From NCBI RefSeq assembly GCF_988243305.1, contig NZ_OZ547136.1: a stretch of 64,000 bases of DNA; one strand, 5' to 3'. Shown here piece after piece: positions 18,673-48,127 of the stretch. The notes below the pieces were generated by a model. That model was not told the DNA's origin. It worked only from the letters and a program-made list of their open reading frames with translations, and searched no databases. A program made the position numbers and the translations under genes. Numbering within the stretch: position 1 is the stretch's first letter; every line of letters begins with the position of its first letter.

Positions 18673-19056
18673 ATGAAGCTGACCATCATTCGATTAGAAA
18701 ACTTTAGCGACCAGGACCGGATTGACCTGCAAAAGATCTGGCCGGAGTATTCCCCTTCCTCTTTACAGGTTGACGATAACCACCGTATCTACGCCGCGCG
18801 TTTTAACGAGCGCCTCCTAGCGGCCGTGCGGGTAACCTTAAGCGGCACCGAGGGGGCACTGGATTCTCTACGTGTGCGGGAAGTCACCCGCCGTCGCGGT
18901 GTGGGGCAATATCTGCTGGAAGAGGTTTTGCGTACCAATCCTGGCGTTTTAGGCTGGTGGATGGCGGATGCTGGCGTGGAAGATCGCGGTGTGATGACGG
19001 CGTTTATGCAGGCGCTGGGGTTTACGGCACAACAGGGCGGCTGGGAGAAGCGTTAA
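18673..19056 (+). CDS. panM: PanD maturation factor (PanZ/PanM)
   Basis: 127-aa ORF MKLTIIRLENFSDQDRIDLQKIW... matching E. coli PanM/YhhK. Confidence 0.9.
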   Translation: MKLTIIRLENFSDQDRIDLQKIWPEYSPSSLQVDDNHRIYAARFNERLLAAVRVTLSGTEGALDSLRVREVTRRRGVGQYLLEEVLRTNPGVLGWWMADAGVEDRGVMTAFMQALGFTAQQGGWEKR

Positions 19057-37638: not shown

Positions 37639-40441
<2,803 letters not shown>

Positions 40442-40639
40442 CACCTCCCAACGCGCCGTTATTTCCTGACGGCGCAGTAGACTTCTGCCAAATATCGACT
40501 CACGTCACATTTTTTTGATCACGATTTGGTCCCTCAAAATGTGAGACGCTTCGATCCTCTTTTTCTCCCGTTCACCTACTATACGCTTGAAGTTGTCCAT
40601 GATTGTCCATAGACAACTGTAAATGTTCAGGTGCGCGCC

Positions 40640-41386
40640 ATGAAATCATTAAGTAAGTCGTCACAAATACCGCTCTATCAACAAGTGGTGGAGTGGATAA
40701 GAGAAAGTATTTATACCGGGGATTTGGTGGAAGACGATCGCATTCCTTCGGAATACCAGATTATGGATATGCTGGAAGTGAGTCGGGGAACCGTTAAAAA
40801 AGCAGTCGCCCAACTGGTAAAAGAAGGCGTGTTGATTCAGGTCCAGGGGAAGGGAACATTTGTCAAAAAAGAGAACGTGGCATATCCGTTAGGTGAAGGA
40901 TTATTGTCATTCGCGGAATCGCTGGAAAGCCAGAAAATACACTTTACCACTGAAGTTATTACGTCACGGATTGAACCGGCTAATCGTTATGTGGCAGAGA
41001 AATTAAGAATAACGCCCGGTCAGGATATTCTTTACCTTGAGCGTTTACGTTCAATTGGTGATGAAAAAGCGATGCTGATAGAGAACCGTATCAATATTGA
41101 GCTATGCCCCGGCATCGTGGAAATCGATTTTAATCAACACAATTTATTTCCAACAATAGAAAGTTTGTCGCAAAGAAAAATTCGTTACTCGGAAAGTCGC
41201 TATGCCGCGCGATTAATTGGTAATGAACGCGGTCATTTTTTAGATATCAGTGAAGATGCACCCGTTTTGCATCTGGAGCAGTTAGTCTTTTTCTCCCGAG
41301 AGTTACCCGTTGAGTTTGGCAACGTCTGGTTAAAAGGAAATAAATATTATCTGGGTACCGTGCTGCAACGGCGGGAATTGAGTTAA
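40640..41386 (+). CDS. GntR/HutC-family transcriptional regulator (winged HTH plus UTRA-type effector domain)
   Basis: About 248 aa; N-terminus IPLYQQVVEWIRESIYTGDLVEDDRIPSEYQIMDMLEVSRGTVKKAVAQLVKEGVL is a typical GntR HTH; not in K-12 at this position. Confidence 0.8.
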   Translation: MKSLSKSSQIPLYQQVVEWIRESIYTGDLVEDDRIPSEYQIMDMLEVSRGTVKKAVAQLVKEGVLIQVQGKGTFVKKENVAYPLGEGLLSFAESLESQKIHFTTEVITSRIEPANRYVAEKLRITPGQDILYLERLRSIGDEKAMLIENRINIELCPGIVEIDFNQHNLFPTIESLSQRKIRYSESRYAARLIGNERGHFLDISEDAPVLHLEQLVFFSRELPVEFGNVWLKGNKYYLGTVLQRRELS

Positions 41387-41410
41387 ATACACTTTTTTAT
41401 GAGGAATAAA

Positions 41411-41884
41411 ATGCAAGGCATACAGTTTCAGGAAAATTATATTCAACGACTTCCGTCAGGGTTAAGCGTTGAACAGATCATCCGTCAGTTAGCGCAACCG
41501 TTGGTTGCTGCTGAGCTGGTGGTCCCTGATTTTGCCGATCACGTACTGAAACGTGAGGCGACGTACCCAACGGGGCTGCCTACCGAACCACCGTGCGTCG
41601 CCATTCCGCACACGGACCATAAATATGTCAGGCACAATGCAATTGCCGTCGGCATCCTGCCGGAACCGGTAGAGTTTGCCGATATGGGCGGCGATCCTGA
41701 CCCCGTACCTGTCAGGGTGATTTTTTTGCTCGCCTTAAGCGAAAGTAATAAACAATTAAATGCCCTGGGCTGGATTATGGAGATGATTCAGGATACGCCC
41801 TTTATGTGCGCCCTGCTTACGATGGAAACAACAGAAATACACACAGTAATCTTAAACAAAATGAAAGAACGAGGTGAAATATGA
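41411..41884 (+). CDS. PTS enzyme IIA, type-2 (fructose/mannitol/galactitol class)
   Basis: ATG at 41411 after GAGGA; contains VAIPHTDH, a candidate phospho-His site; about 157 aa. Confidence 0.75.
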   Translation: MQGIQFQENYIQRLPSGLSVEQIIRQLAQPLVAAELVVPDFADHVLKREATYPTGLPTEPPCVAIPHTDHKYVRHNAIAVGILPEPVEFADMGGDPDPVPVRVIFLLALSESNKQLNALGWIMEMIQDTPFMCALLTMETTEIHTVILNKMKERGEI

Positions 41885-42162
41885 GTCAAACCATTTTATT
41901 TGTCTGCGCCACGGGTATTGCCACATCCACGGCGGTAACAGAAAAAGTCATGGAATATTGTAAAGAGCACGGTCTTAACGTCAATTATTCCCAAACCAAC
42001 GTTGCCTCTTTACCTGGAAATACTGACGGCGTAGCACTGGTAGTCTCAACGACTAAAGTGCCTTATGAACTCGACGTCCCGGTGGTTAACGGCTTGCCGA
42101 TTATTACCGGTATTGGCGAAGAGAAAGTACTGGCGCAAATTGTTTCGATCCTTAAAAAGTAA
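41881..42162 (+). CDS. PTS enzyme IIB, galactitol family
   Basis: 93 aa; MSQTILFVCATGIATSTAV resembles GatB with the phospho-Cys in the C(A)TG motif; 4-bp overlap with IIA. Confidence 0.8.
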   Translation: MSQTILFVCATGIATSTAVTEKVMEYCKEHGLNVNYSQTNVASLPGNTDGVALVVSTTKVPYELDVPVVNGLPIITGIGEEKVLAQIVSILKK

Positions 42163-42238
42163 TTAATAATAATTAATTTCAACCCACTCCATCAGGCGCT
42201 AACGCGAGGTGCGCTCTCGCCTGAAAAAGAGGTTTATT

Positions 42239-43597
42239 ATGAACGATATCGCGCATACCCTCTATAATATTGTGCAATATATATTGGGATTTGGTCCCAC
42301 GGTAATGTTGCCGTTGGTGTTATTTATTCTTGCTCTCTTTTTTAAAGTAAAACCCGCTAAAGCCTTACGTTCGTCATTAACGGTCGGCATTGGTTTTGTC
42401 GGTATTTATGCCATTTTCGATATTCTTACCAGCAATGTCGGGCCAGCGGCCCAGGCGATGGTTGAACGCACCGGAATTAATTTACCGGTGGTGGATTTAG
42501 GCTGGCCGCCGCTTTCCGCTATTACATGGGGTTCGCCAATTGCCCCGTTTGTTATTCCCCTGACTATTCTGATTAACGTGGCGATGCTGGCGTTAAATAA
42601 AACCCGCACCGTTGACGTAGATATGTGGAACTACTGGCATTTTGCCCTTGCCGGTACGCTGGTTTATTACAGCACCGGCAGCCTGTTCTTTGGTTTGCTG
42701 GCAGCGGCGATTGCTGCGGTGGTAGTACTTAAACTCGCCGACTGGTCTGCGCCACTGGTACAAAAATACTTTGGCCTGGAAGGGATCTCTTTGCCGACGC
42801 TCTCTTCGGTGGTGTTCTTCCCGGTCGGTCTGCTGGTCGACAAAATCATCGACCATATCCCCGGCCTCAATCGTATTCATATCGATCCGGAAACCGTGCA
42901 GAAAAAGTTTGGCATCTTCGGTGAACCGATGATGGTTGGCACTATTCTGGGCATTCTGCTCGGCGTAATTGCCGGATACGATTTCAAAAAAGTCTTGCTG
43001 CTTGGCATCAGCATTGGCGGTGTGATGTTCATCCTGCCACGCATGGTTCGCATTCTGATGGAAGGTTTATTACCGCTGTCTGAAGCCATTAAAAAGTATC
43101 TCAATGCCAAATACCCTGACCGTGACGATCTCTATATCGGCCTGGATATCGCCGTTGCCGTAGGTAACCCAGCGATTATCTCCACCGCCCTGCTGCTGAC
43201 GCCAATCTCGGTCTTTATCGCGTTTGTCCTTCCGGGTAATGAAGTCCTGCCGCTTGGCGACCTTGCCAACCTGGCGGTAATGGCGTCGATGATTGCTTTA
43301 GCCAGCCGTGGCAACATTTTCCGCACCGTTCTGGCGGCGATTCCGGTGATTATTGCCGATCTGTGGATTGCGACTAAAATCGCGCCGTTTATTACCGGAA
43401 TGGCGAAAGACGTTAATTTCAAATTTGCCGAAGGCTCCAGCGGCCAGGTCTCCAGTTTCCTTGATGGCGGTAACCCATTCCGCTTCTGGCTGCTGGAAAT
43501 CTTCAACGGCAATCTCATCGCCATTGGTCTGGTGCCGGTTATCGCCCTGGTACTGTATGGTATTTTCCGAATGACGCGGAGCACGGTTTATGCCTGA
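42239..43597 (+). CDS. PTS enzyme IIC, galactitol family
   Basis: ATG at 42239 after AAGAGG; polytopic membrane protein with clear similarity to GatC (GPTVMLP..., ...VDVGWP..., ...PRMV..., ...GNEVLPLGDLA...). Confidence 0.85.
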   Translation: MNDIAHTLYNIVQYILGFGPTVMLPLVLFILALFFKVKPAKALRSSLTVGIGFVGIYAIFDILTSNVGPAAQAMVERTGINLPVVDLGWPPLSAITWGSPIAPFVIPLTILINVAMLALNKTRTVDVDMWNYWHFALAGTLVYYSTGSLFFGLLAAAIAAVVVLKLADWSAPLVQKYFGLEGISLPTLSSVVFFPVGLLVDKIIDHIPGLNRIHIDPETVQKKFGIFGEPMMVGTILGILLGVIAGYDFKKVLLLGISIGGVMFILPRMVRILMEGLLPLSEAIKKYLNAKYPDRDDLYIGLDIAVAVGNPAIISTALLLTPISVFIAFVLPGNEVLPLGDLANLAVMASMIALASRGNIFRTVLAAIPVIIADLWIATKIAPFITGMAKDVNFKFAEGSSGQVSSFLDGGNPFRFWLLEIFNGNLIAIGLVPVIALVLYGIFRMTRSTVYA

Positions 43598-45098
43598 TAA
43601 CAGCGCAGCTATCGTTATCGATATTGGCACCACCAATTGCAAAGTCACCTGCTTTTCCTGCCTGGACGCAACGACGTTGGGCGCGCATAAATTCGTGACG
43701 GCAAAACAGATCTCCCCACAGGGCAATGTCGATTTCGATATCGACGCCCTCTGGCAGGAGGTCCGCCAGGCGATAGCGCAACTGAACGCCGCTTCGCCGC
43801 TGCCAGTCAGGCGGATAAGCATTGCCAGTTTTGGCGAGTCAGGCGTGTTCCTTGACGAGCATGGCGAGATCCTGACGCCAATGCTGGCATGGTATGACCG
43901 TCGCGGTGAAGAGTATCTGGCTACACTTAGCGAGGCAGACAGTGCGGCACTTTATGACATTTGCGGGTTACCGCTGCACAGCAATTACTCTGCCTTCAAA
44001 ATGCGTTGGTTGCTGGAACATTACCCACTGCGTAATCGCCGCGGCCTGCGTTGGCTACATGCGCCGGAAGTACTGCTCTGGCGGCTGACCGGCGAACAGC
44101 GCACGGATATCACCTTAGCCAGCCGCACGCTGTGTCTTGACGTGCGCAAAGGCGAATGGTCAGCGAAAGCGGCGGCGTTGTTACACGTTCCCTGTTCAGC
44201 ATTTGCGCCATTGGTGCAGCCAGGCGAACACGCCGGATGGGTCAGCGAGTCGCTCTGCAAAATGCTTGGGTTCTCGCAACCGGTCAGCGTGACGCTGGCC
44301 GGACATGACCATATGGTGGGTGCGCGAGCGTTGCAGATGATGCCGGGCGATATCCTTAACTCGACGGGGACCACAGAAGGCATTCTGCAACTGGATACAC
44401 AACCGACGCTGGATGAACAGGCCAAACGTGACAAGCTGGCAAACGGCTGTTATTCGCTTGCAAACCAGTTCACCCTGTTTGCGTCGCTGCCCGTGGGCGG
44501 TTTCGCTCTGGAGTGGCTGCGTAACACGTTCCGGCTAACCGATGAGGAGATCGCCGCATCACTTACTCGCGGACATGCGGATTACCTGGCGGGGAACTGG
44601 TCGCTCGATGACATTCCCCTCTTTATTCCACATCTTCGCGGTTCGGGTTCGCCCTATAAAAATCGCCATACTCGTGGATTATTTTATGGGCTTGGCGATA
44701 CGTTAAATATCGACATGTTAATTGCCAGCGTCTCACTGGGATTAACCATGGAATTTGCCAACTGCTTCGCCTGTTTTAATGTGCCTGGCACCAGCGCGTT
44801 AAAAGTGATAGGTCCGGCAACCCAAAATCCCCTTTGGCTGCAATTAAAAGCGGATATTTTACAGCGTCCGGTTGAAGCAATTGCATTTAACGAGGCGGTT
44901 TCTGTCGGAGCATTATTAACTGCCGCACCGGATATTCCACCGCCGCAAGTTACCATAGCCCAACGTTTGTTACCGAATCGGGCGAGATACCATCAATTAC
45001 AGCGTTATCAGCACAAATGGAAAAGCTGGTATCAGTTGAAATTACAACAAGAAGGCGTGATGCCATTACATCATCGGGAGGAACACTATGTTGAATAA
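43590..45098 (+). CDS. FGGY-family carbohydrate kinase
   Basis: 502 aa; N-terminal VIDIGTTNCKV is an FGGY/actin-fold ATPase motif; overlaps IIC and the HPr-like gene. Confidence 0.75.
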   Translation: MPDNSAAIVIDIGTTNCKVTCFSCLDATTLGAHKFVTAKQISPQGNVDFDIDALWQEVRQAIAQLNAASPLPVRRISIASFGESGVFLDEHGEILTPMLAWYDRRGEEYLATLSEADSAALYDICGLPLHSNYSAFKMRWLLEHYPLRNRRGLRWLHAPEVLLWRLTGEQRTDITLASRTLCLDVRKGEWSAKAAALLHVPCSAFAPLVQPGEHAGWVSESLCKMLGFSQPVSVTLAGHDHMVGARALQMMPGDILNSTGTTEGILQLDTQPTLDEQAKRDKLANGCYSLANQFTLFASLPVGGFALEWLRNTFRLTDEEIAASLTRGHADYLAGNWSLDDIPLFIPHLRGSGSPYKNRHTRGLFYGLGDTLNIDMLIASVSLGLTMEFANCFACFNVPGTSALKVIGPATQNPLWLQLKADILQRPVEAIAFNEAVSVGALLTAAPDIPPPQVTIAQRLLPNRARYHQLQRYQHKWKSWYQLKLQQEGVMPLHHREEHYVE

Positions 45099-45357
45099 AA
45101 CCGTGGAGGTCAGAAACAGTACTGGCCTGCATGCACGTCCGGCGGCCTGTCTGGCGAAAGCCGCCAAAAAATATAGCTGTAAAGTGACGCTGCACTATGA
45201 GGGTAATGATATTAATGCCACCAGCATGATGAATATTATGCGCGCCGGAATAAAAGGCGGAAAAACGGTGGAAATACGCTGCGACGGTGATGATGAAAAC
45301 GAGGCCATACAGACTCTCACCGACTTATTTCGCGACCGCTTCGGTGAAGCTGAATAA
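45088..45357 (+). CDS. HPr-family phosphocarrier protein
   Basis: 89 aa; GLHARPAA contains the conserved active-site His; preceded by GGGAGGA. Confidence 0.8.
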   Translation: MLNKTVEVRNSTGLHARPAACLAKAAKKYSCKVTLHYEGNDINATSMMNIMRAGIKGGKTVEIRCDGDDENEAIQTLTDLFRDRFGEAE

Positions 45358-45388
45358 TTAACTGATATTAAAAGATGAGGTTTTCAAT

Positions 45389-46249
45389 ATGCCATTAGTT
45401 AATGGACGGATACTGCTCGACCGCATTCAGGAAAAACGGGTATTAGCGGGCGCGTTTAATACCACCAATCTGGAGACGACGATTTCAATTTTAAACGCCA
45501 TTGAGCGTTCAGGATTACCCAACTTCATTCAGATTGCGCCCACCAATGCACAACTCTCGGGATACGATTACATTTATGAAATCGTGAAACGTCACGCCGA
45601 TAAAATGGATGTTCCGGTCAGTCTTCATCTGGATCACGGGAAAACTCAGGAGGATGTTAAACAGGCGGTGCGCGCGGGCTTTACCTCGGTCATGATTGAC
45701 GGTGCCGCATTATCTTTTGAAGAGAATATCGCTTTCACCCAGGAAGCTGTCGATTTCTGTAAATCCTATGGCGTACCGGTTGAAGCGGAGCTGGGGGCGA
45801 TTCTCGGCAAAGAAGATGATCACGTCAGCGAAGCCGATTGCAAAACGGAACCGGAAAAGGTGAAGACCTTTGTCGAGCGCACCGGTTGCGACATGCTGGC
45901 AGTTTCTATTGGCAACGTTCATGGCCTGGACGATATACCGCGTATCGATATCCCCCTGCTGAAGCGCATTGCCGAAGTCTGCCCGGTGCCGCTGGTTATT
46001 CACGGCGGCTCCGGTATCGCCCCGGAAATATTACGCAGCTTTGTTAATTATCGCGTCGCTAAAGTAAATATCGCCAGCGATCTGCGCAAAGCGTTTATCA
46101 CCGCCGTCGGCAAAGCGTATGTGAATAATCACAACGAGGCGAATCTGGCACGAGTGATGGCATCAGCAAAAAACGCCGTCGAGGAAGATGTGTATAGCAA
46201 AATCCTGATGATGAATGAGGGGCATCGGTTGATTAGAAAGGCATCTTAA
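45389..46249 (+). CDS. Class II ketose-bisphosphate aldolase (tagatose/fructose-bisphosphate aldolase family)
   Basis: 286 aa; LHLDHG and VIHGGSG motifs typical of class II aldolases such as GatY/KbaY/FbaA. Confidence 0.8.
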   Translation: MPLVNGRILLDRIQEKRVLAGAFNTTNLETTISILNAIERSGLPNFIQIAPTNAQLSGYDYIYEIVKRHADKMDVPVSLHLDHGKTQEDVKQAVRAGFTSVMIDGAALSFEENIAFTQEAVDFCKSYGVPVEAELGAILGKEDDHVSEADCKTEPEKVKTFVERTGCDMLAVSIGNVHGLDDIPRIDIPLLKRIAEVCPVPLVIHGGSGIAPEILRSFVNYRVAKVNIASDLRKAFITAVGKAYVNNHNEANLARVMASAKNAVEEDVYSKILMMNEGHRLIRKAS

Positions 46250-46262
46250 GAGCCACAAAAAT

Positions 46263-46297
46263 ATAGCGGCGCAACAGAAATTGTTGGGCCGCTATAA
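46263..46297. terminator. Strong hairpin between convergent aldolase and hicB-like genes
   Basis: ATAGCGGCGCAACA-gaaa-TTGTTGGGCCGCTAT inverted repeat; A/T-rich flanks on both sides. Confidence 0.35.
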
Positions 46298-46298
46298 G

Positions 46299-46658
46299 TT
46301 ATAAATGATTCAAACGCTCATTCAGTGTTTCAATAATATAGGTATTTACAGAGACTTGTTGCTGCGCAGCCGCATTATTAAGGCGTTCACTCAGCGATTC
46401 TGGATAGCGTAATGTAAAGGTCTTAATCTTTTCTGTACGCGCATACGGCTCAATACCCGCAGCTTTACAATCCTCAAGATACTCTCGCAGGGAAAGCTCC
46501 CCTTCTTTTTGCAGCCCCTGAATGCTGTCAGAGACAAAATCACAATAACCTGACAAGCCCAGGAATTTGCCACGAAATGCATTCAGTTCTGGCACGTAAG
46601 TGATAACTGCAGGTTGCCCGGCAATCTCCATAGAGTTTGGTGTCTTCAGTTTGATCAT
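46299..46658 (-). CDS. hicB: HicB-family antitoxin (UPF0150 domain plus C-terminal ribbon-helix-helix)
   Basis: 119 aa; C-terminus TFTLRYPESLSERLNNAAAQQQVSVNTYIIETLNERL is RHH-like; 4-bp overlap with the upstream toxin gene. Confidence 0.7.
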   Translation of the reverse strand: MIKLKTPNSMEIAGQPAVITYVPELNAFRGKFLGLSGYCDFVSDSIQGLQKEGELSLREYLEDCKAAGIEPYARTEKIKTFTLRYPESLSERLNNAAAQQQVSVNTYIIETLNERLNHL

Positions 46659-46930
46659 GGTTTTACCCCTATACTTAGTAACCAGTCACGCACGCTTTCT
46701 ACAGCGCCTTTATCGGTATCTGGCGACGGATGAGGCCGATGGAAACACGCAACGCTCATATTTAGTATGAACTTACAACGCGAACCTCTTCCTTCCTTAA
46801 TTTCTCCGCCTAATGCTTTAACCAGTGACTCTATATCAGACCACTTAATCCCTTGAGGAACAGGAGATTTAAATATTTGATCCAATGTATTTTTTTGTTT
46901 CTTCCGTAAAGCCTGTACCTGGGTTCTCAT
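46655..46930 (-). CDS. hicA: HicA-family (YcfA-like) toxin
   Basis: 91 aa; LVKALGGEIKEGRGSRCKF...FHRPHP...VRDWLLSIGV fits the HicA pattern; lies upstream of the antitoxin gene as in hicAB. Confidence 0.6.
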   Translation of the reverse strand: MRTQVQALRKKQKNTLDQIFKSPVPQGIKWSDIESLVKALGGEIKEGRGSRCKFILNMSVACFHRPHPSPDTDKGAVESVRDWLLSIGVKP

Positions 46931-46940
46931 GGCATGTCCT

Positions 46941-46990
46941 TATGACTTCACTTTATGACATCAATAGTATGACATCACAATATGAAGTCA
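46941..46990 (-). promoter_or_regulatory. Candidate hicAB promoter/operator with reiterated TATGAC(A/T)TCA motifs
   Basis: TATGACTTCA, TATGACATCA, GTATGACATCA and TATGAAGTCA (the last is the reverse complement of the first) within 50 bp upstream of hicA. Confidence 0.4.
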
Positions 46991-47002
46991 AGTTTCCCTT
47001 CC

Positions 47003-48127
47003 TTACGCCATTGTCCCAATCGTCTTCCTGAATCGCAGCAGTGCGATGGTGAAAAATGCGCCGCCAATTGCCATCAGCGTCAGGAACTGCGGCCAGACGA
47101 TTTCGAATCCGGCACCACGGTAGAGAATGGCCTGCGCAAGGCTAACAAAGTGTGTCGTCGGCATGGTCAACATAATGTCCTGCACCGTCTGCGGCATACT
47201 TTCGCGCGGCGTGGATCCACCGGAAAGCATTTGCAGCGGTAGCAGCACCAGAATCACCAGCAGCCCCAGTTGCGGCATTGAACGCGCTATCGTCCCCATA
47301 AAAATGCCGATTGACGTGGTGGCAAACAGACTGAGCGCCACGCCCAGCATAAACAGCGGGATCGAGCCTTCAATCGGTACGCCCAGCACGCCTTTCACCA
47401 TCAGTACCAGCGATAATCCCGACACCATCAGCACCACCAGCCCCATCGACCAGACCTTCGCCATCATGATCTCAAACGGCGTTATCGGCATCACCAATAA
47501 GTGTTCCACCGTGCCGTGTTCACGCTCGCGGATCAGCGCCGATCCGGTCAATACAATCGCCAGCATGGTAATGTTGTTGATGATCGCCATCACCCCACCG
47601 AACCACGCGGGATCAAGGTTCGGGTTAAAGCGCATCCGGGTTTCCAGCGATACCAACGGTTCGCTGTTATCACGGTAGCGCGCGACAAAGCTGTTCACTT
47701 CACCGTTGATAATATTCTGGATATACCCATTGCCGGTAAATGCCTGGCTCATGCGCGTGGCATCGACGTTCACCTGAATATCTGGCTGGCGTCCGGCGAG
47801 GACATCACGCTGAAAATTAGGCGGAATATTTATCGCGAAGGTATAGCATCCGGCGTCCAGCCCGGCATCCATCTCATCGGCGGTGATCATCTCCGGTGGC
47901 AAAAACCACGGGCGATAGAAGCTGTTAACGATCCTGTTCGATAACTGCGATTGATCCATATCGGCAATGGCGATCGGCGCGAGGTTCAACGATCCTGGCG
48001 TAACGGTCGCTGACGAATACACCGACACCGTAAACGAGAAGACAATCAGCGTCAGCATCGCTTTATCACCGAGCAAACTGCGCAACTCTTTGATACCCAG
48101 ATTAAAAATATTGCGTAAATGGCGCAT
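47003..48127 (-). CDS. yhhJ: ABC-2-type efflux permease
   Basis: Start placed at [20 protein letters not shown] (374 aa); ATGA overlap with the rbbA stop. Confidence 0.9.
   Translation of the reverse strand: MRHLRNIFNLGIKELRSLLGDKAMLTLIVFSFTVSVYSSATVTPGSLNLAPIAIADMDQSQLSNRIVNSFYRPWFLPPEMITADEMDAGLDAGCYTFAINIPPNFQRDVLAGRQPDIQVNVDATRMSQAFTGNGYIQNIINGEVNSFVARYRDNSEPLVSLETRMRFNPNLDPAWFGGVMAIINNITMLAIVLTGSALIREREHGTVEHLLVMPITPFEIMMAKVWSMGLVVLMVSGLSLVLMVKGVLGVPIEGSIPLFMLGVALSLFATTSIGIFMGTIARSMPQLGLLVILVLLPLQMLSGGSTPRESMPQTVQDIMLTMPTTHFVSLAQAILYRGAGFEIVWPQFLTLMAIGGAFFTIALLRFRKTIGTMA

Follow-up and report, generated by a model that had tools for sequence, protein, structure and literature searches.

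The interval between nikR and yhhJ, where K-12 carries rhsB, holds in the genome studied here a compact set of sugar-catabolic genes, which raises the question of what kind of substrate these genes serve and by which route it would be degraded. A preliminary description had outlined a co-oriented, partly overlapping cluster without a dehydrogenase, probably acting on a ketose or similar compound that is phosphorylated twice and cleaved by an aldolase. We followed this up in a window of 64,000 nucleotides (contig NZ_OZ547136.1 of RefSeq assembly GCF_988243305.1), to which all coordinates refer.

An intact seven-gene island at the rhsB site of K-12

The island extends from 40442, the first base past the nikR stop (40441), to 46298, the last base ahead of the hicB stop (46299). 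Its genes span 40640-46249 on the + strand and encode a GntR/HutC regulator, Gat-family PTS IIA, IIB and IIC, an FGGY kinase (K1), an HPr paralog and a class II aldolase. In K-12 (strain C600) the interval from nikR to yhhJ instead reads rhsB-yhhH-lyase fragment-ISEc1, which bears out the placement given in the preliminary description. The layout described there also held, as all seven ORFs share one orientation and three neighboring pairs overlap (IIA/IIB by 4 nt, IIC/kinase by 8 nt and kinase/HPr by 11 nt); each ORF is intact, with no internal stops. For the regulator, IIA and IIC we favored starts at ATG 40640, 41411 and 42239 over the longest ORFs, based on RefSeq starts in close relatives and cross-species conservation. 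When ORFs and Pfam domains across 40442-46298 were inspected, no dehydrogenase, isomerase or GatZ-like gene was observed, in agreement with the earlier reading. Pfam calls for all seven proteins were far over gathering scores and every family assignment passed the Pfam/NCBIfam check without reassignment, while the protein names given by sources for the cluster members are all generic. GC content (0.42-0.54 vs 0.51 for the window) carries no clear foreign signature.

A hicAB toxin-antitoxin pair on the - strand (46299-46930), absent from the preliminary description, separates the aldolase gene from yhhJ as an independent insert. The aldolase and hicB genes converge, and in the gap between them we read a hairpin, TATAGCGGC...GCCGCTATA (46262-46296), which a simple terminator scan did not report. 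Since its T-run lies on the - strand, the hairpin is probably the hicAB terminator, and it may act bidirectionally.

A Gat-family PTS with a dedicated HPr paralog

The assignment of the three PTS components to the galactitol family is confirmed by Pfam (PTS_EIIA_2, PTS_IIB and EIIC-GAT). IIA, of the EIIA_2 type (157 aa, 41411-41884), scored 112.7 bits against PF00359, missed the GatA equivalog in NCBIfam (52 vs 139) and carries its phosphorylatable His in VAIPHT; it evolves fast, with 34% identity to Enterococcus. IIB (93 aa, 41881-42162), with Cys9 in FVCATGIATS, reached 42.2 bits against PF02302 and 60 bits as GatB-like, where the cut-off is 95. IIC (452 aa, 42239-43597) matched PF03611 over residues 24-408 with 307 bits against a cut-off of 24.2, and is strongly conserved (76% identity to the Enterococcus ortholog; pN/pS 0.01-0.04). 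Because its score for TIGR00827 (GatC) of 475.6 lies below the cut-off of 542.2, the PTS is, by sequence, a Gat-family member yet not a galactitol transporter. The dedicated HPr paralog proposed earlier (89 aa, 45088-45357) is likewise upheld (PF00381 101 bits; TIGR01003 103 vs a cut-off of 48), has His15 (GLH15ARPA) and Ser46, and is not the PtsH equivalog (51 vs 153 in NCBIfam). It is present in enterobacterial clusters and missing from most Firmicute ones.

An aldolase with retained catalytic residues and two altered motifs

The class II (Zn) aldolase (286 aa, 45389-46249) was correctly called as a ketose-bisphosphate aldolase by family (PF01116 274.7 bits; PRK07998 556.9 vs 364; TIGR00167 220.9 vs 215.6), and its orthologs share 67% identity in Enterococcus and 81% in the Pantoea variant. 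The best PDB match was AgaY at 165 bits; D82, H83, H178, H205, the GKEDD loop with Glu142, and N227 align with AgaY D82, H83, H180, H208, the GVEDD loop and N230, so Zn ligands and catalytic residues are retained. All tagatose-1,6-bisphosphate aldolase cut-offs were missed (GatY 239.8 vs 383, KbaY 179.9 vs 542 and TIGR01858 219 vs 443.6).

Two motifs deserve closer inspection. The distal-phosphate D-P-R motif, which contains AgaY Arg257 and FbaA Arg331, is replaced in this aldolase family by N-L-A-R or N-L-I-K, so that the basic residue sits one position away, and 4 of 45 scored members lack it; in addition, Ala50 stands where FbaA has Ser61 and AgaY has Thr. AgaY Arg257, together with FbaA Arg331 and Ser61, belongs to the distal-phosphate site. 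The second motif is N-I-A-S-D, as in AgaY/GatY, in place of FbaA N-I-D-T-D, with Ala229 replacing FbaA Asp288, a residue modelled in contact with the C4-OH (PMC5434028). Ala at this position points to a non-fructose, tagatose-like or relaxed, C3/C4 configuration of the substrate.

K1 is an FGGY kinase outside the characterized specificity groups

The FGGY assignment of K1 (502 aa, 43590-45098) was corroborated by both domains (FGGY_N PF00370 155 bits; FGGY_C PF02782 87.5 bits). Its AF2 model (pLDDT 92.5) superposes on glycerol, xylulose and gluconate kinases with TM scores of 0.80-0.84, and the nearest solved structures are glycerol kinases; a Foldseek search with the model returned generic FGGY matches of ~20% identity and singled out no specific characterized subfamily. 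D240 of the catalytic AGHDH motif aligns with GlpK Asp245, and all of 36 homologs carry DIGTTN and NSTGTTE without change. Compared with the XylB, GlpK, FucK, RhaB, GntK, LsrK and AraB groups, K1 fell below every characterized equivalog (best NCBIfam scores XylB 146 vs 380, GlpK 129 vs 590 and FucK 122 vs 471).

The catalytic motif itself is AGHDH in K1, AGHDT in FucK and ASHDT in RhaB, as opposed to GDQQ in GlpK and GGGDNA in XylB. K1 thus shares the His-Asp motif of the ketose 1-kinases FucK and RhaB, an argument that is thin because K1 is only 19-23% identical to K-12 FucK, RhaB, XylB and GlpK. The GHDH motif was present in 73 of 80 loci, while overall conservation of K1 between E. coli and Enterococcus (36%) is far under that of IIC (76%) and the aldolase (67%). 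The start/stop overlap of IIC and K1 is kept in all dehydrogenase-free clusters with called gene coordinates. We also considered co-variation of K1 with the PTS as an argument for the order of steps toward a bisphosphate and dropped it, as the kinase is ~36-39% identical across groups whatever the IIC identity.

An invariant kinase-aldolase pair with interchangeable partners

Comparison across E. coli, as the preliminary description had suggested, found the island in 1631 of 5426 complete genomes (~30%), O157:H7 and ST131 among them. Internal stops were absent, and pN/pS over the seven genes was 0.069 vs O157:H7 and 0.082 vs ST131. The island is under strong purifying selection (pN/pS ~0.07).

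The same gene set without other enzymes was observed in Salmonella, Sodalis, Enterococcus, Listeria, a Clostridium-like genome, Pectinatus and Mitsuokella, and at least 35 species, from three orders or phyla, carry the dehydrogenase-free set at unrelated chromosomal sites. We annotated 80 loci, one per species genome, of which 79 were complete. In all 79 the aldolase adjoins K1; 57 have a Gat-type PTS without K2, a XylB-type second FGGY kinase with a G[SAG]GDNA motif, 22 have K2 without the PTS, and none has both. In Actinobacteria the PTS gives way to an ABC or MFS transporter, of CUT2 ABC or MFS monosaccharide types, together with the second kinase. These data identify K1 and the aldolase as a pair kept without exception in Proteobacteria, Firmicutes and Actinobacteria, and the Gat-type PTS and xylulokinase-type K2 as mutually exclusive partners of that pair; both observations are new here. 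Mutual exclusivity suggests that PTS and K2 are alternative providers of one phosphorylation, with K1 providing another, and supports two phosphorylations around a single aldol cleavage. The comparison therefore lends weight to the earlier proposal of a twice-phosphorylated, aldolase-cleaved ketose, as the minimal dehydrogenase-free set recurs in Enterobacterales, Enterococcus, Listeria, Clostridia and Negativicutes.

Of the 79 related loci, 27 carry Zn-dependent polyol(-phosphate)-type dehydrogenases. These variants parallel the galactitol pathway, where the ketose-6-phosphate requires a 1-kinase, but their IIC (57% identity to that of the island) and K1 (39%) differ clearly, suggesting that they form a distinct specificity class. 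Truncated or fused copies occur occasionally. Gene content, intactness, selection, distribution, operator conservation and PTS/K2 exclusivity are all shown by the sequences.

A conserved operator candidate precedes the regulator gene

The regulator (248 aa, 40640-41386, pN/pS 0.06-0.09) combines an N-terminal GntR winged HTH (PF00392 58.9 bits) with a C-terminal UTRA effector domain (PF07702 93.4 bits) and attained no NCBIfam equivalog. Upstream of the regulator gene, the stretch that follows the nikR stop (40442-40639, + strand) contains three blocks kept with Salmonella and Sodalis (40494-40520, 40536-40555 and 40577-40639), while the remainder of the alignment has diverged. Within the third block lies a predicted operator, GAAGTTGTCCATGATTGTCCATAGACAACT (40589-40618, + strand), near-invariant in the three genera and enclosing the palindrome TTGTCCATAGACAA (40603-40616), which is a perfect 14-bp palindrome in Salmonella and Sodalis. 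This conserved TTGTCyATAGACAA candidate operator is new in this analysis. TTGTACA-type repeats spaced ~11 bp apart were observed upstream of Firmicute, Pantoea/Gibbsiella and actinobacterial clusters.

The alignment also suggests a -10 hexamer, TACTAT (40577-40582, + strand), that reads TATTAT in Sodalis and TATCAT in Salmonella and lies 6 nt ahead of the operator block in all three. A consensus promoter scan did not report it, promoter and terminator scans of the region gave nothing exceeding shuffled expectation, and the -35 of the E. coli promoter is poor. A CRP-like site, TGTGAGACGCTTCGAT (40540-40555, + strand), has 3 mismatches and is centered 41.5 bp upstream of the predicted transcription start, with its TGTGA half-site unchanged in the three genera. 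The E. coli CRP-like sites (two, 3 mismatches each) are not above chance, the window containing 156 such matches vs 206 expected, and CRP control is a weak, conservation-based hypothesis only.

The Salmonella counterpart

Judged from sequence, the island is the ortholog of a Salmonella enterica island, matched to STM3779-STM3785 by the LT2 locus tags together with a published description. That description assigns the Salmonella island to "unknown carbohydrate utilization" and reports repression by H-NS (PMC3604774); in 2024 it was still placed among "unknown sugars" (PMC11000858). All seven genes are shared (regulator 81%, IIA 61%, IIB 83%, IIC 89%, kinase 63%, aldolase 89% and HPr 47% identity), as is the operator sequence ahead of the regulator, whereas the last two genes stand in reverse order (aldolase-HPr) and the island is located near uhp rather than between nikR and yhhJ. 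A permissive chicken caecal community gave a positive expression score for the Salmonella genes, whereas control medium and the exclusion product did not (PMC11000858). A full-text literature search with the cluster genes, enzyme families, STM locus tags and rare ketoses found no characterization of the cluster.

Comparison with known ketose pathways

The galactitol/D-tagatose systems (gatYZABCD and the Klebsiella tagatose genes) share with the island a Gat-family three-component PTS and a class II AgaY/GatY-type aldolase, which has the same Ala at the FbaA-Asp288 position. A second phosphorylation yields a ketose-1,6-bisphosphate there, a step that is proposed for the island as well. The systems differ in that the former include a GatD dehydrogenase and a GatZ partner, neither of which is in the island, and have a DeoR-type GatR in place of a GntR/HutC regulator and PfkA or a PfkB-family enzyme in place of an FGGY-family second kinase. 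GatY and AgaY are 32-36% identical to the island aldolase, which scores beneath their NCBIfam cut-offs, as IIC does for GatC.

The L-fucose and L-rhamnose pathways (FucK/FucA and RhaB/RhaD) offer a parallel in the His-Asp motif of their FGGY kinases, which phosphorylate C1 of a 2-ketose ahead of cleavage by a DHAP-releasing metal aldolase. Their aldolases, however, are of the unrelated AraD-like fold, and their substrates are free 6-deoxy-ketoses imported by symporters. In the K-12 ydj cluster, an accessory sugar pathway with a long-unknown specificity, the PF01116 aldolase YdjI is 33% identical to that of the island and likewise lacks the DPR motif; the cluster differs in its PfkB kinase (YdjH), the absence of a PTS and, per the RefSeq product name of YdjI, a monophosphorylated octuluronate as substrate.

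Proposed pathway and alternatives

From these comparisons we infer in which order the steps occur, which positions are phosphorylated and what class of substrate is used. Without sugar, the GntR/HutC repressor would bind its TTGTCyATAGACAA-type operator, located immediately past a weak promoter that is possibly CRP-assisted and H-NS-silenced. The HPr paralog would take phosphate from enzyme I and hand it to IIA and IIB, and the sugar would be imported by the Gat-family IIC and phosphorylated by IIB on its terminal (omega) hydroxyl. K1, translationally coupled to IIC, would then put a second phosphate on C1, and the aldolase would split the ketose-1,omega-bisphosphate into DHAP and an aldose phosphate, namely glyceraldehyde-3-phosphate from a D-ketohexose or erythrose-4-phosphate from a heptulose. 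Slightly more than evenly, we lean toward reading the island as a working and horizontally mobile operon for catabolism of a ketose, with PTS, K1 and aldolase acting in sequence.

The same count of two phosphorylations fits equally a route in which cleavage precedes the second kinase step: the PTS would yield a ketose-1-phosphate, the aldolase would release DHAP and a free aldehyde (glyceraldehyde or erythrose), and K1 would phosphorylate the aldehyde, as in the mammalian fructose-1-phosphate, aldolase B and triokinase route. No characterized FGGY kinase is known to act on anything but an unphosphorylated substrate or to accept a sugar phosphate, so action of K1 on a ketose phosphate would be unprecedented; the nearest solved relatives of K1 being glycerol kinases also favors this route, as does an aldolase that lacks the DPR motif and the bisphosphate-aldolase Ser/Thr, like the monophosphate aldolase YdjI (QPF there). 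We nonetheless regard it as unlikely. It needs the opposite assignment of kinases, given the ketose 1-kinase His-Asp motif of K1 and the omega-kinase motif of the xylulokinase-type PTS substitute in Actinobacteria, while the conserved IIC-K1 coupling suggests that K1 works on the transport product. Judging from the Gat, Mtl and Gut pathways, the dehydrogenase variants would moreover be expected to yield a ketose-omega-phosphate, which is uncleavable before C1 phosphorylation.

If the substrate were instead a polyol or aldose, a dehydrogenase or isomerase would have to be encoded elsewhere on the chromosome and the island would be part of a galactitol-like pathway, consistent with the polyol substrates known for Gat-family PTS (galactitol and D-arabitol) and with the 27 dehydrogenase-bearing loci. 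Those loci, however, appear to form their own specificity class, and the unchanged recurrence of the self-contained set at unrelated sites makes reliance on a host gene unlikely; we consider this reading improbable. It is very improbable that the island has no present function, as a passenger that is silent or decaying, or that its PTS proteins and HPr paralog are purely regulatory. H-NS repression of the Salmonella ortholog (PMC3604774), the poor -35 and the occasional damaged copies would fit such a role, but low pN/pS over the full set of seven genes when deep E. coli lineages are compared, intact reading frames, a conserved operator and ribosome-binding region, expression in the caecal community (PMC11000858) and retention of the core across three phyla argue against it.

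Returning to the route in which both ends are phosphorylated before cleavage, we tentatively propose, at somewhat less than an even chance, that K1 is the first FGGY kinase to act on a sugar phosphate, a ketose-omega-phosphate 1-kinase analogous to PFK. Together with the always adjacent PRK07998-type aldolase it would define a previously unrecognized route in which a rare ketose is phosphorylated at both ends and then cleaved, the ketose being a heptulose or a ketohexose other than fructose, for example D-tagatose, D-psicose or D-sorbose. Such a route would span more than 300 species in three phyla, with either a Gat-type PTS or a xylulokinase-type kinase supplying it. As the preliminary description held, the sequence does not name the sugar. 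L-sorbose, considered because the Enterococcus avium group has the cluster, was rejected as a specific proposal on weak grounds: it would give L-glyceraldehyde-3-phosphate, and Salmonella carries the cluster.

The invariant kinase-aldolase core with its interchangeable PTS or second kinase narrows the question to a few ketoses and three proteins. Carriers include major pathogenic E. coli lineages (O157:H7 and ST131), and naming the sugar would reveal a niche-specific carbon source unusable by K-12 and fill a gap in metabolic models. Should K1 indeed phosphorylate a ketose phosphate, the range of reactions known for FGGY kinases would be widened.

Gene content and genomic setting of the island

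Seven intact genes in a single orientation (40640-46249) make up the island between nikR and hicB, and each product was assigned by Pfam far over the gathering threshold: the regulator to GntR and UTRA, PTS IIA to PTS_EIIA_2, IIB to PTS_IIB, IIC to EIIC-GAT, the kinase (43590-45098, hereafter K1 together with its orthologs) to FGGY_N and FGGY_C, the HPr paralog to PTS-HPr, and the aldolase to F_bP_aldolase. The IIA and IIB genes overlap, and the kinase gene overlaps both of its neighbours, IIC and HPr. With NCBIfam in agreement, these assignments confirm every component named in the preliminary description and support its overall reading of a sugar-catabolic cluster; the limits it gave, 40442-46298, delimit exactly the interval between the nikR and hicB stops. 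At the level of NCBIfam subfamilies, the aldolase passed the cut-offs of both the PRK07998 equivalog 'class II aldolase' (557, cut-off 364) and the ketose-bisphosphate aldolase subfamily (221, cut-off 216) and scored below the GatY, KbaY and FBA equivalogs. IIC belongs to the Gat family yet lies under the galactitol cut-off (476 versus 542), the HPr paralog is a member of the HPr family and not PtsH, and K1 attained no characterised NCBIfam equivalog, its best scores being 146 versus 380 for XylB, 129 versus 590 for GlpK and 122 versus 471 for FucK.

When the region 40300-47100 was compared by megablast with 5426 complete E. coli genomes, at least 80% of the query was found in 1631, in every case on the chromosome. 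Among the window and the relatives' loci L001-L003, L008 and L009, the hot spot between nikR and yhhJ takes at least five alternative forms: the island with hicAB (the window and O157:H7), the island with a REP-like element and without hicAB (ST131), hicAB alone, an empty junction with 8 bp between two convergent stop codons, and, in a K-12 derivative, rhsB, yhhH, a lyase fragment and ISEc1, which bears out the earlier placement of rhsB at this site. All of these states diverge right after the nikR stop and right before the yhhJ stop (40441/40442 and 47002/47003), and neither flanking direct repeats nor an integrase was seen at the junction in the window or these loci. The hicAB toxin-antitoxin pair (PF05534, PF07927), comprising hicB (46299-46658) and hicA (46655-46930) on the minus strand between the aldolase gene and yhhJ, is an insert independent of the island (46299-46930); many E. 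coli have it at this junction without the island, and the ST131 version of the island lacks it. The REP/BIME-like element (GCCGGATGCGGCGTGA..CTTATCCGGCCTAC), absent from the window, is common to ST131 (L002 7941-8050), where it lies downstream of the aldolase gene, and K-12 (L009 about 18720-18830), where it lies upstream of yhhJ. The ST131 aldolase terminates three codons early. Within nikR (40040-40441) the window is just 95.5% identical in DNA to O157:H7 and 92.8% to ST131, and the NikR protein accession is identical across all genomes inspected. Overall, the nearest complete genome belongs to a sediment isolate (NZ_LR778147.1, 99.1%), and the window is probably from an E. coli lineage that has been sequenced less often.

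Conservation, relatives and predicted regulation

Given that all seven ORFs are intact relative to both O157:H7 and ST131, with pooled pN/pS of 0.069 and 0.082, respectively, the island genes are kept by selection. Conservation of the aldolase is unusually high: the E. coli protein shares 67% identity with the Enterococcus one and 81% with that of the Pantoea variant; in the E. coli-Enterococcus comparison, IIC reaches 76%, K1 36% and IIA 34%. Comparison of the window genes with O157:H7, ST131, Salmonella and one further locus (L001, L002, L004 and L005) separated a slower-evolving group (IIC 89%, IIB 83% and aldolase 89% identity, E. coli versus Salmonella) from a much faster one (IIA 61%, HPr 47% and kinase 63%). 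IIA and HPr are known to engage in protein-protein contacts, and FGGY kinases bind or are phosphorylated by PTS proteins, as with GlpK (IIAGlc and HPr) and LsrK (HPr). By analogy with these contacts, the shared fast evolution makes a physical link of the kinase with HPr or IIA conceivable.

Kinase homologs at 61-80% identity occur in Citrobacter, Salmonella, Sodalis, Pantoea, Cedecea and others, followed by a gap down to approximately 35-40% in Firmicutes and other groups. The Salmonella locus carries the same seven genes, and the island is orthologous to the uncharacterised Salmonella island STM3779-STM3785, the match to these tags following the LT2 annotation and the description in PMC3604774. 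The Salmonella island has been described as an acquisition of the subspecies I ancestor that encodes a full PTS whose specificity is unknown, and as H-NS-repressed (PMC3604774). In 2024 it was still grouped under 'unknown sugars', and in a permissive chicken caecal community it was scored as expressed (PMC11000858).

Several other genomes carry a minimal set of regulator, aldolase, IIA, IIB, IIC and kinase with no further enzyme: Enterococcus, Listeria, a Clostridium-like genome, Mitsuokella and Pectinatus, the last with a PRD regulator replacing the usual one. Pantoea, Gibbsiella and Gilliamella have a variant form, extended by dehydrogenases of the Zn-dependent polyol(-phosphate) type and by a phosphatase. 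In bee-gut Gilliamella and a metagenome (L022, L059, L065 and L103), the kinase and dehydrogenase are followed by a conserved 121-aa protein without a match in Pfam and by a His_Phos_1 phosphatase, which in Pantoea-type variants is replaced by a SurE-family phosphatase. In Enterococcus raffinosus, malodoratus and avium (L051, L052 and L054, about 10.9-19 kb), the dehydrogenase-free cluster is followed immediately downstream by genes for a second aldolase paralog, a PRD-type regulator, a Zn-dependent dehydrogenase and a xylulokinase-type kinase, possibly a second, related pathway.

The DNA preceding the regulator gene is conserved in just three blocks when E. coli, Salmonella and Sodalis are compared. 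The strongest is a predicted operator (40589-40618, GAAGTTGTmCATrATTGTCyATAGACAACT) holding a 14-bp palindrome, with perfect symmetry in Salmonella and Sodalis, and TTGTACA-type repeats approximately 11 bp apart precede the Firmicute, Pantoea/Gibbsiella and actinobacterial clusters. This pattern fits a HutC-type repressor of conserved DNA specificity that would target its own operon. A -10-like hexamer, TACTAT (40577-40582), lies at a fixed distance ahead of the operator, and a TGTGA half-site, also conserved, has its centre at -41.5 relative to the implied start; since the CRP-like matches in E. coli alone are no better than chance, CRP control of the operon is only hypothesized.

A kinase-aldolase core with alternating partners

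Scanning one genome per species (100,044 species) with the kinase alignment yielded 317 relatives, and the best 80 of these loci were annotated by tblastn with the cluster components. Of these 80, 79 are complete, and every one of the 79 has the aldolase adjoining K1. Within 7 kb of K1, 57 loci carry a Gat-type PTS without a second FGGY kinase (K2), 22 loci, all in Actinobacteria, carry a XylB-type K2 without the PTS, none carries both, and a single 1.3-kb contig carries neither. Against the xylulokinase model K2 reaches 305 bits, and it has the XylB motif G-x-G-D-N-A; the sugar transporters of the actinobacterial clusters are of the CUT2-type ABC or MFS kind. Around a constant K1 and aldolase, the PTS is thus interchangeable with an omega-type sugar kinase, as expected if the sugar is phosphorylated at two positions and cleaved once. 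Behind K2, most actinobacterial clusters have a third FGGY paralog (L094 11976-13319; L063, L072 and L078), which in some retains GHDH; other copies read A-G-A-D-L-A, match only the N-terminal Pfam domain and may be degenerate or regulatory.

Predicted roles of the kinase and the aldolase

We aligned K1 with FucK, RhaB, GlpK and XylB of K-12, to which its overall identity is only 19-23%. The catalytic motif of the K1 family is A-G-H-D-H, with GHDH found in 73 of the best 80 of the 317 relatives, and the N-terminal substrate loop is F-G-E-S-G; the corresponding pairs are A-G-H-D-T and F-G-V-D-G in FucK and A-S-H-D-T and W-G-V-D-F in RhaB, both ketose 1-kinases, G-D-Q-Q and N-Q-R-E-T in GlpK, and G-G-G-D-N-A and G-Q-M-H-G in XylB. 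An AlphaFold model of K1 (pLDDT 92.5) matched solved FGGY kinases, generically only. With moderate confidence, we infer that K1 would add a phosphate at C1 and the PTS or K2 at the terminal carbon, in which case K1 would act on a sugar phosphate. To our knowledge, no FGGY kinase with such a substrate has been described.

The Zn ligands and catalytic residues of the aldolase align with those of AgaY, and the residue two positions past the conserved Asn varies by enzyme type: N-[IVL]-A-S-D in the island family, N-V-A-T-E in the tagatose-bisphosphate aldolases AgaY and GatY, N-I-D-T-D in FbaA and N-I-H-T-E in YdjI. Because the island family has Ala at the position of FbaA Asp288, modelled to contact the C4 hydroxyl (PMC5434028), the alignment suggests a non-fructose or relaxed stereochemistry. 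The D-P-R motif (AgaY Arg257) is replaced by N-L-A-R or N-L-I-K, and Ala50 stands where others have Ser/Thr, which would count against a standard hexose-bisphosphate site. The same replacements could reflect a distal phosphate placed differently, for example on a chain of another length, or allow a monophosphate substrate; the latter is the main rival reading, in which the monophosphate would be cleaved first.

In its working, the operon resembles the galactitol/tagatose pathways, which likewise combine a Gat PTS, a second phosphorylation and a class II aldolase, but it is not a member of them: GatD and GatZ are lacking, the regulator is GntR rather than DeoR, the kinase is FGGY rather than PFK or PfkB, and its proteins fall under all specific equivalog cut-offs. 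The cluster is already annotated in thousands of genomes, so that its existence is no novelty. The new elements are the kinase-aldolase core across phyla, the alternation of the PTS with a second kinase and the predicted operator, together with the specific hypothesis that K1 may be an FGGY ketose-phosphate 1-kinase.
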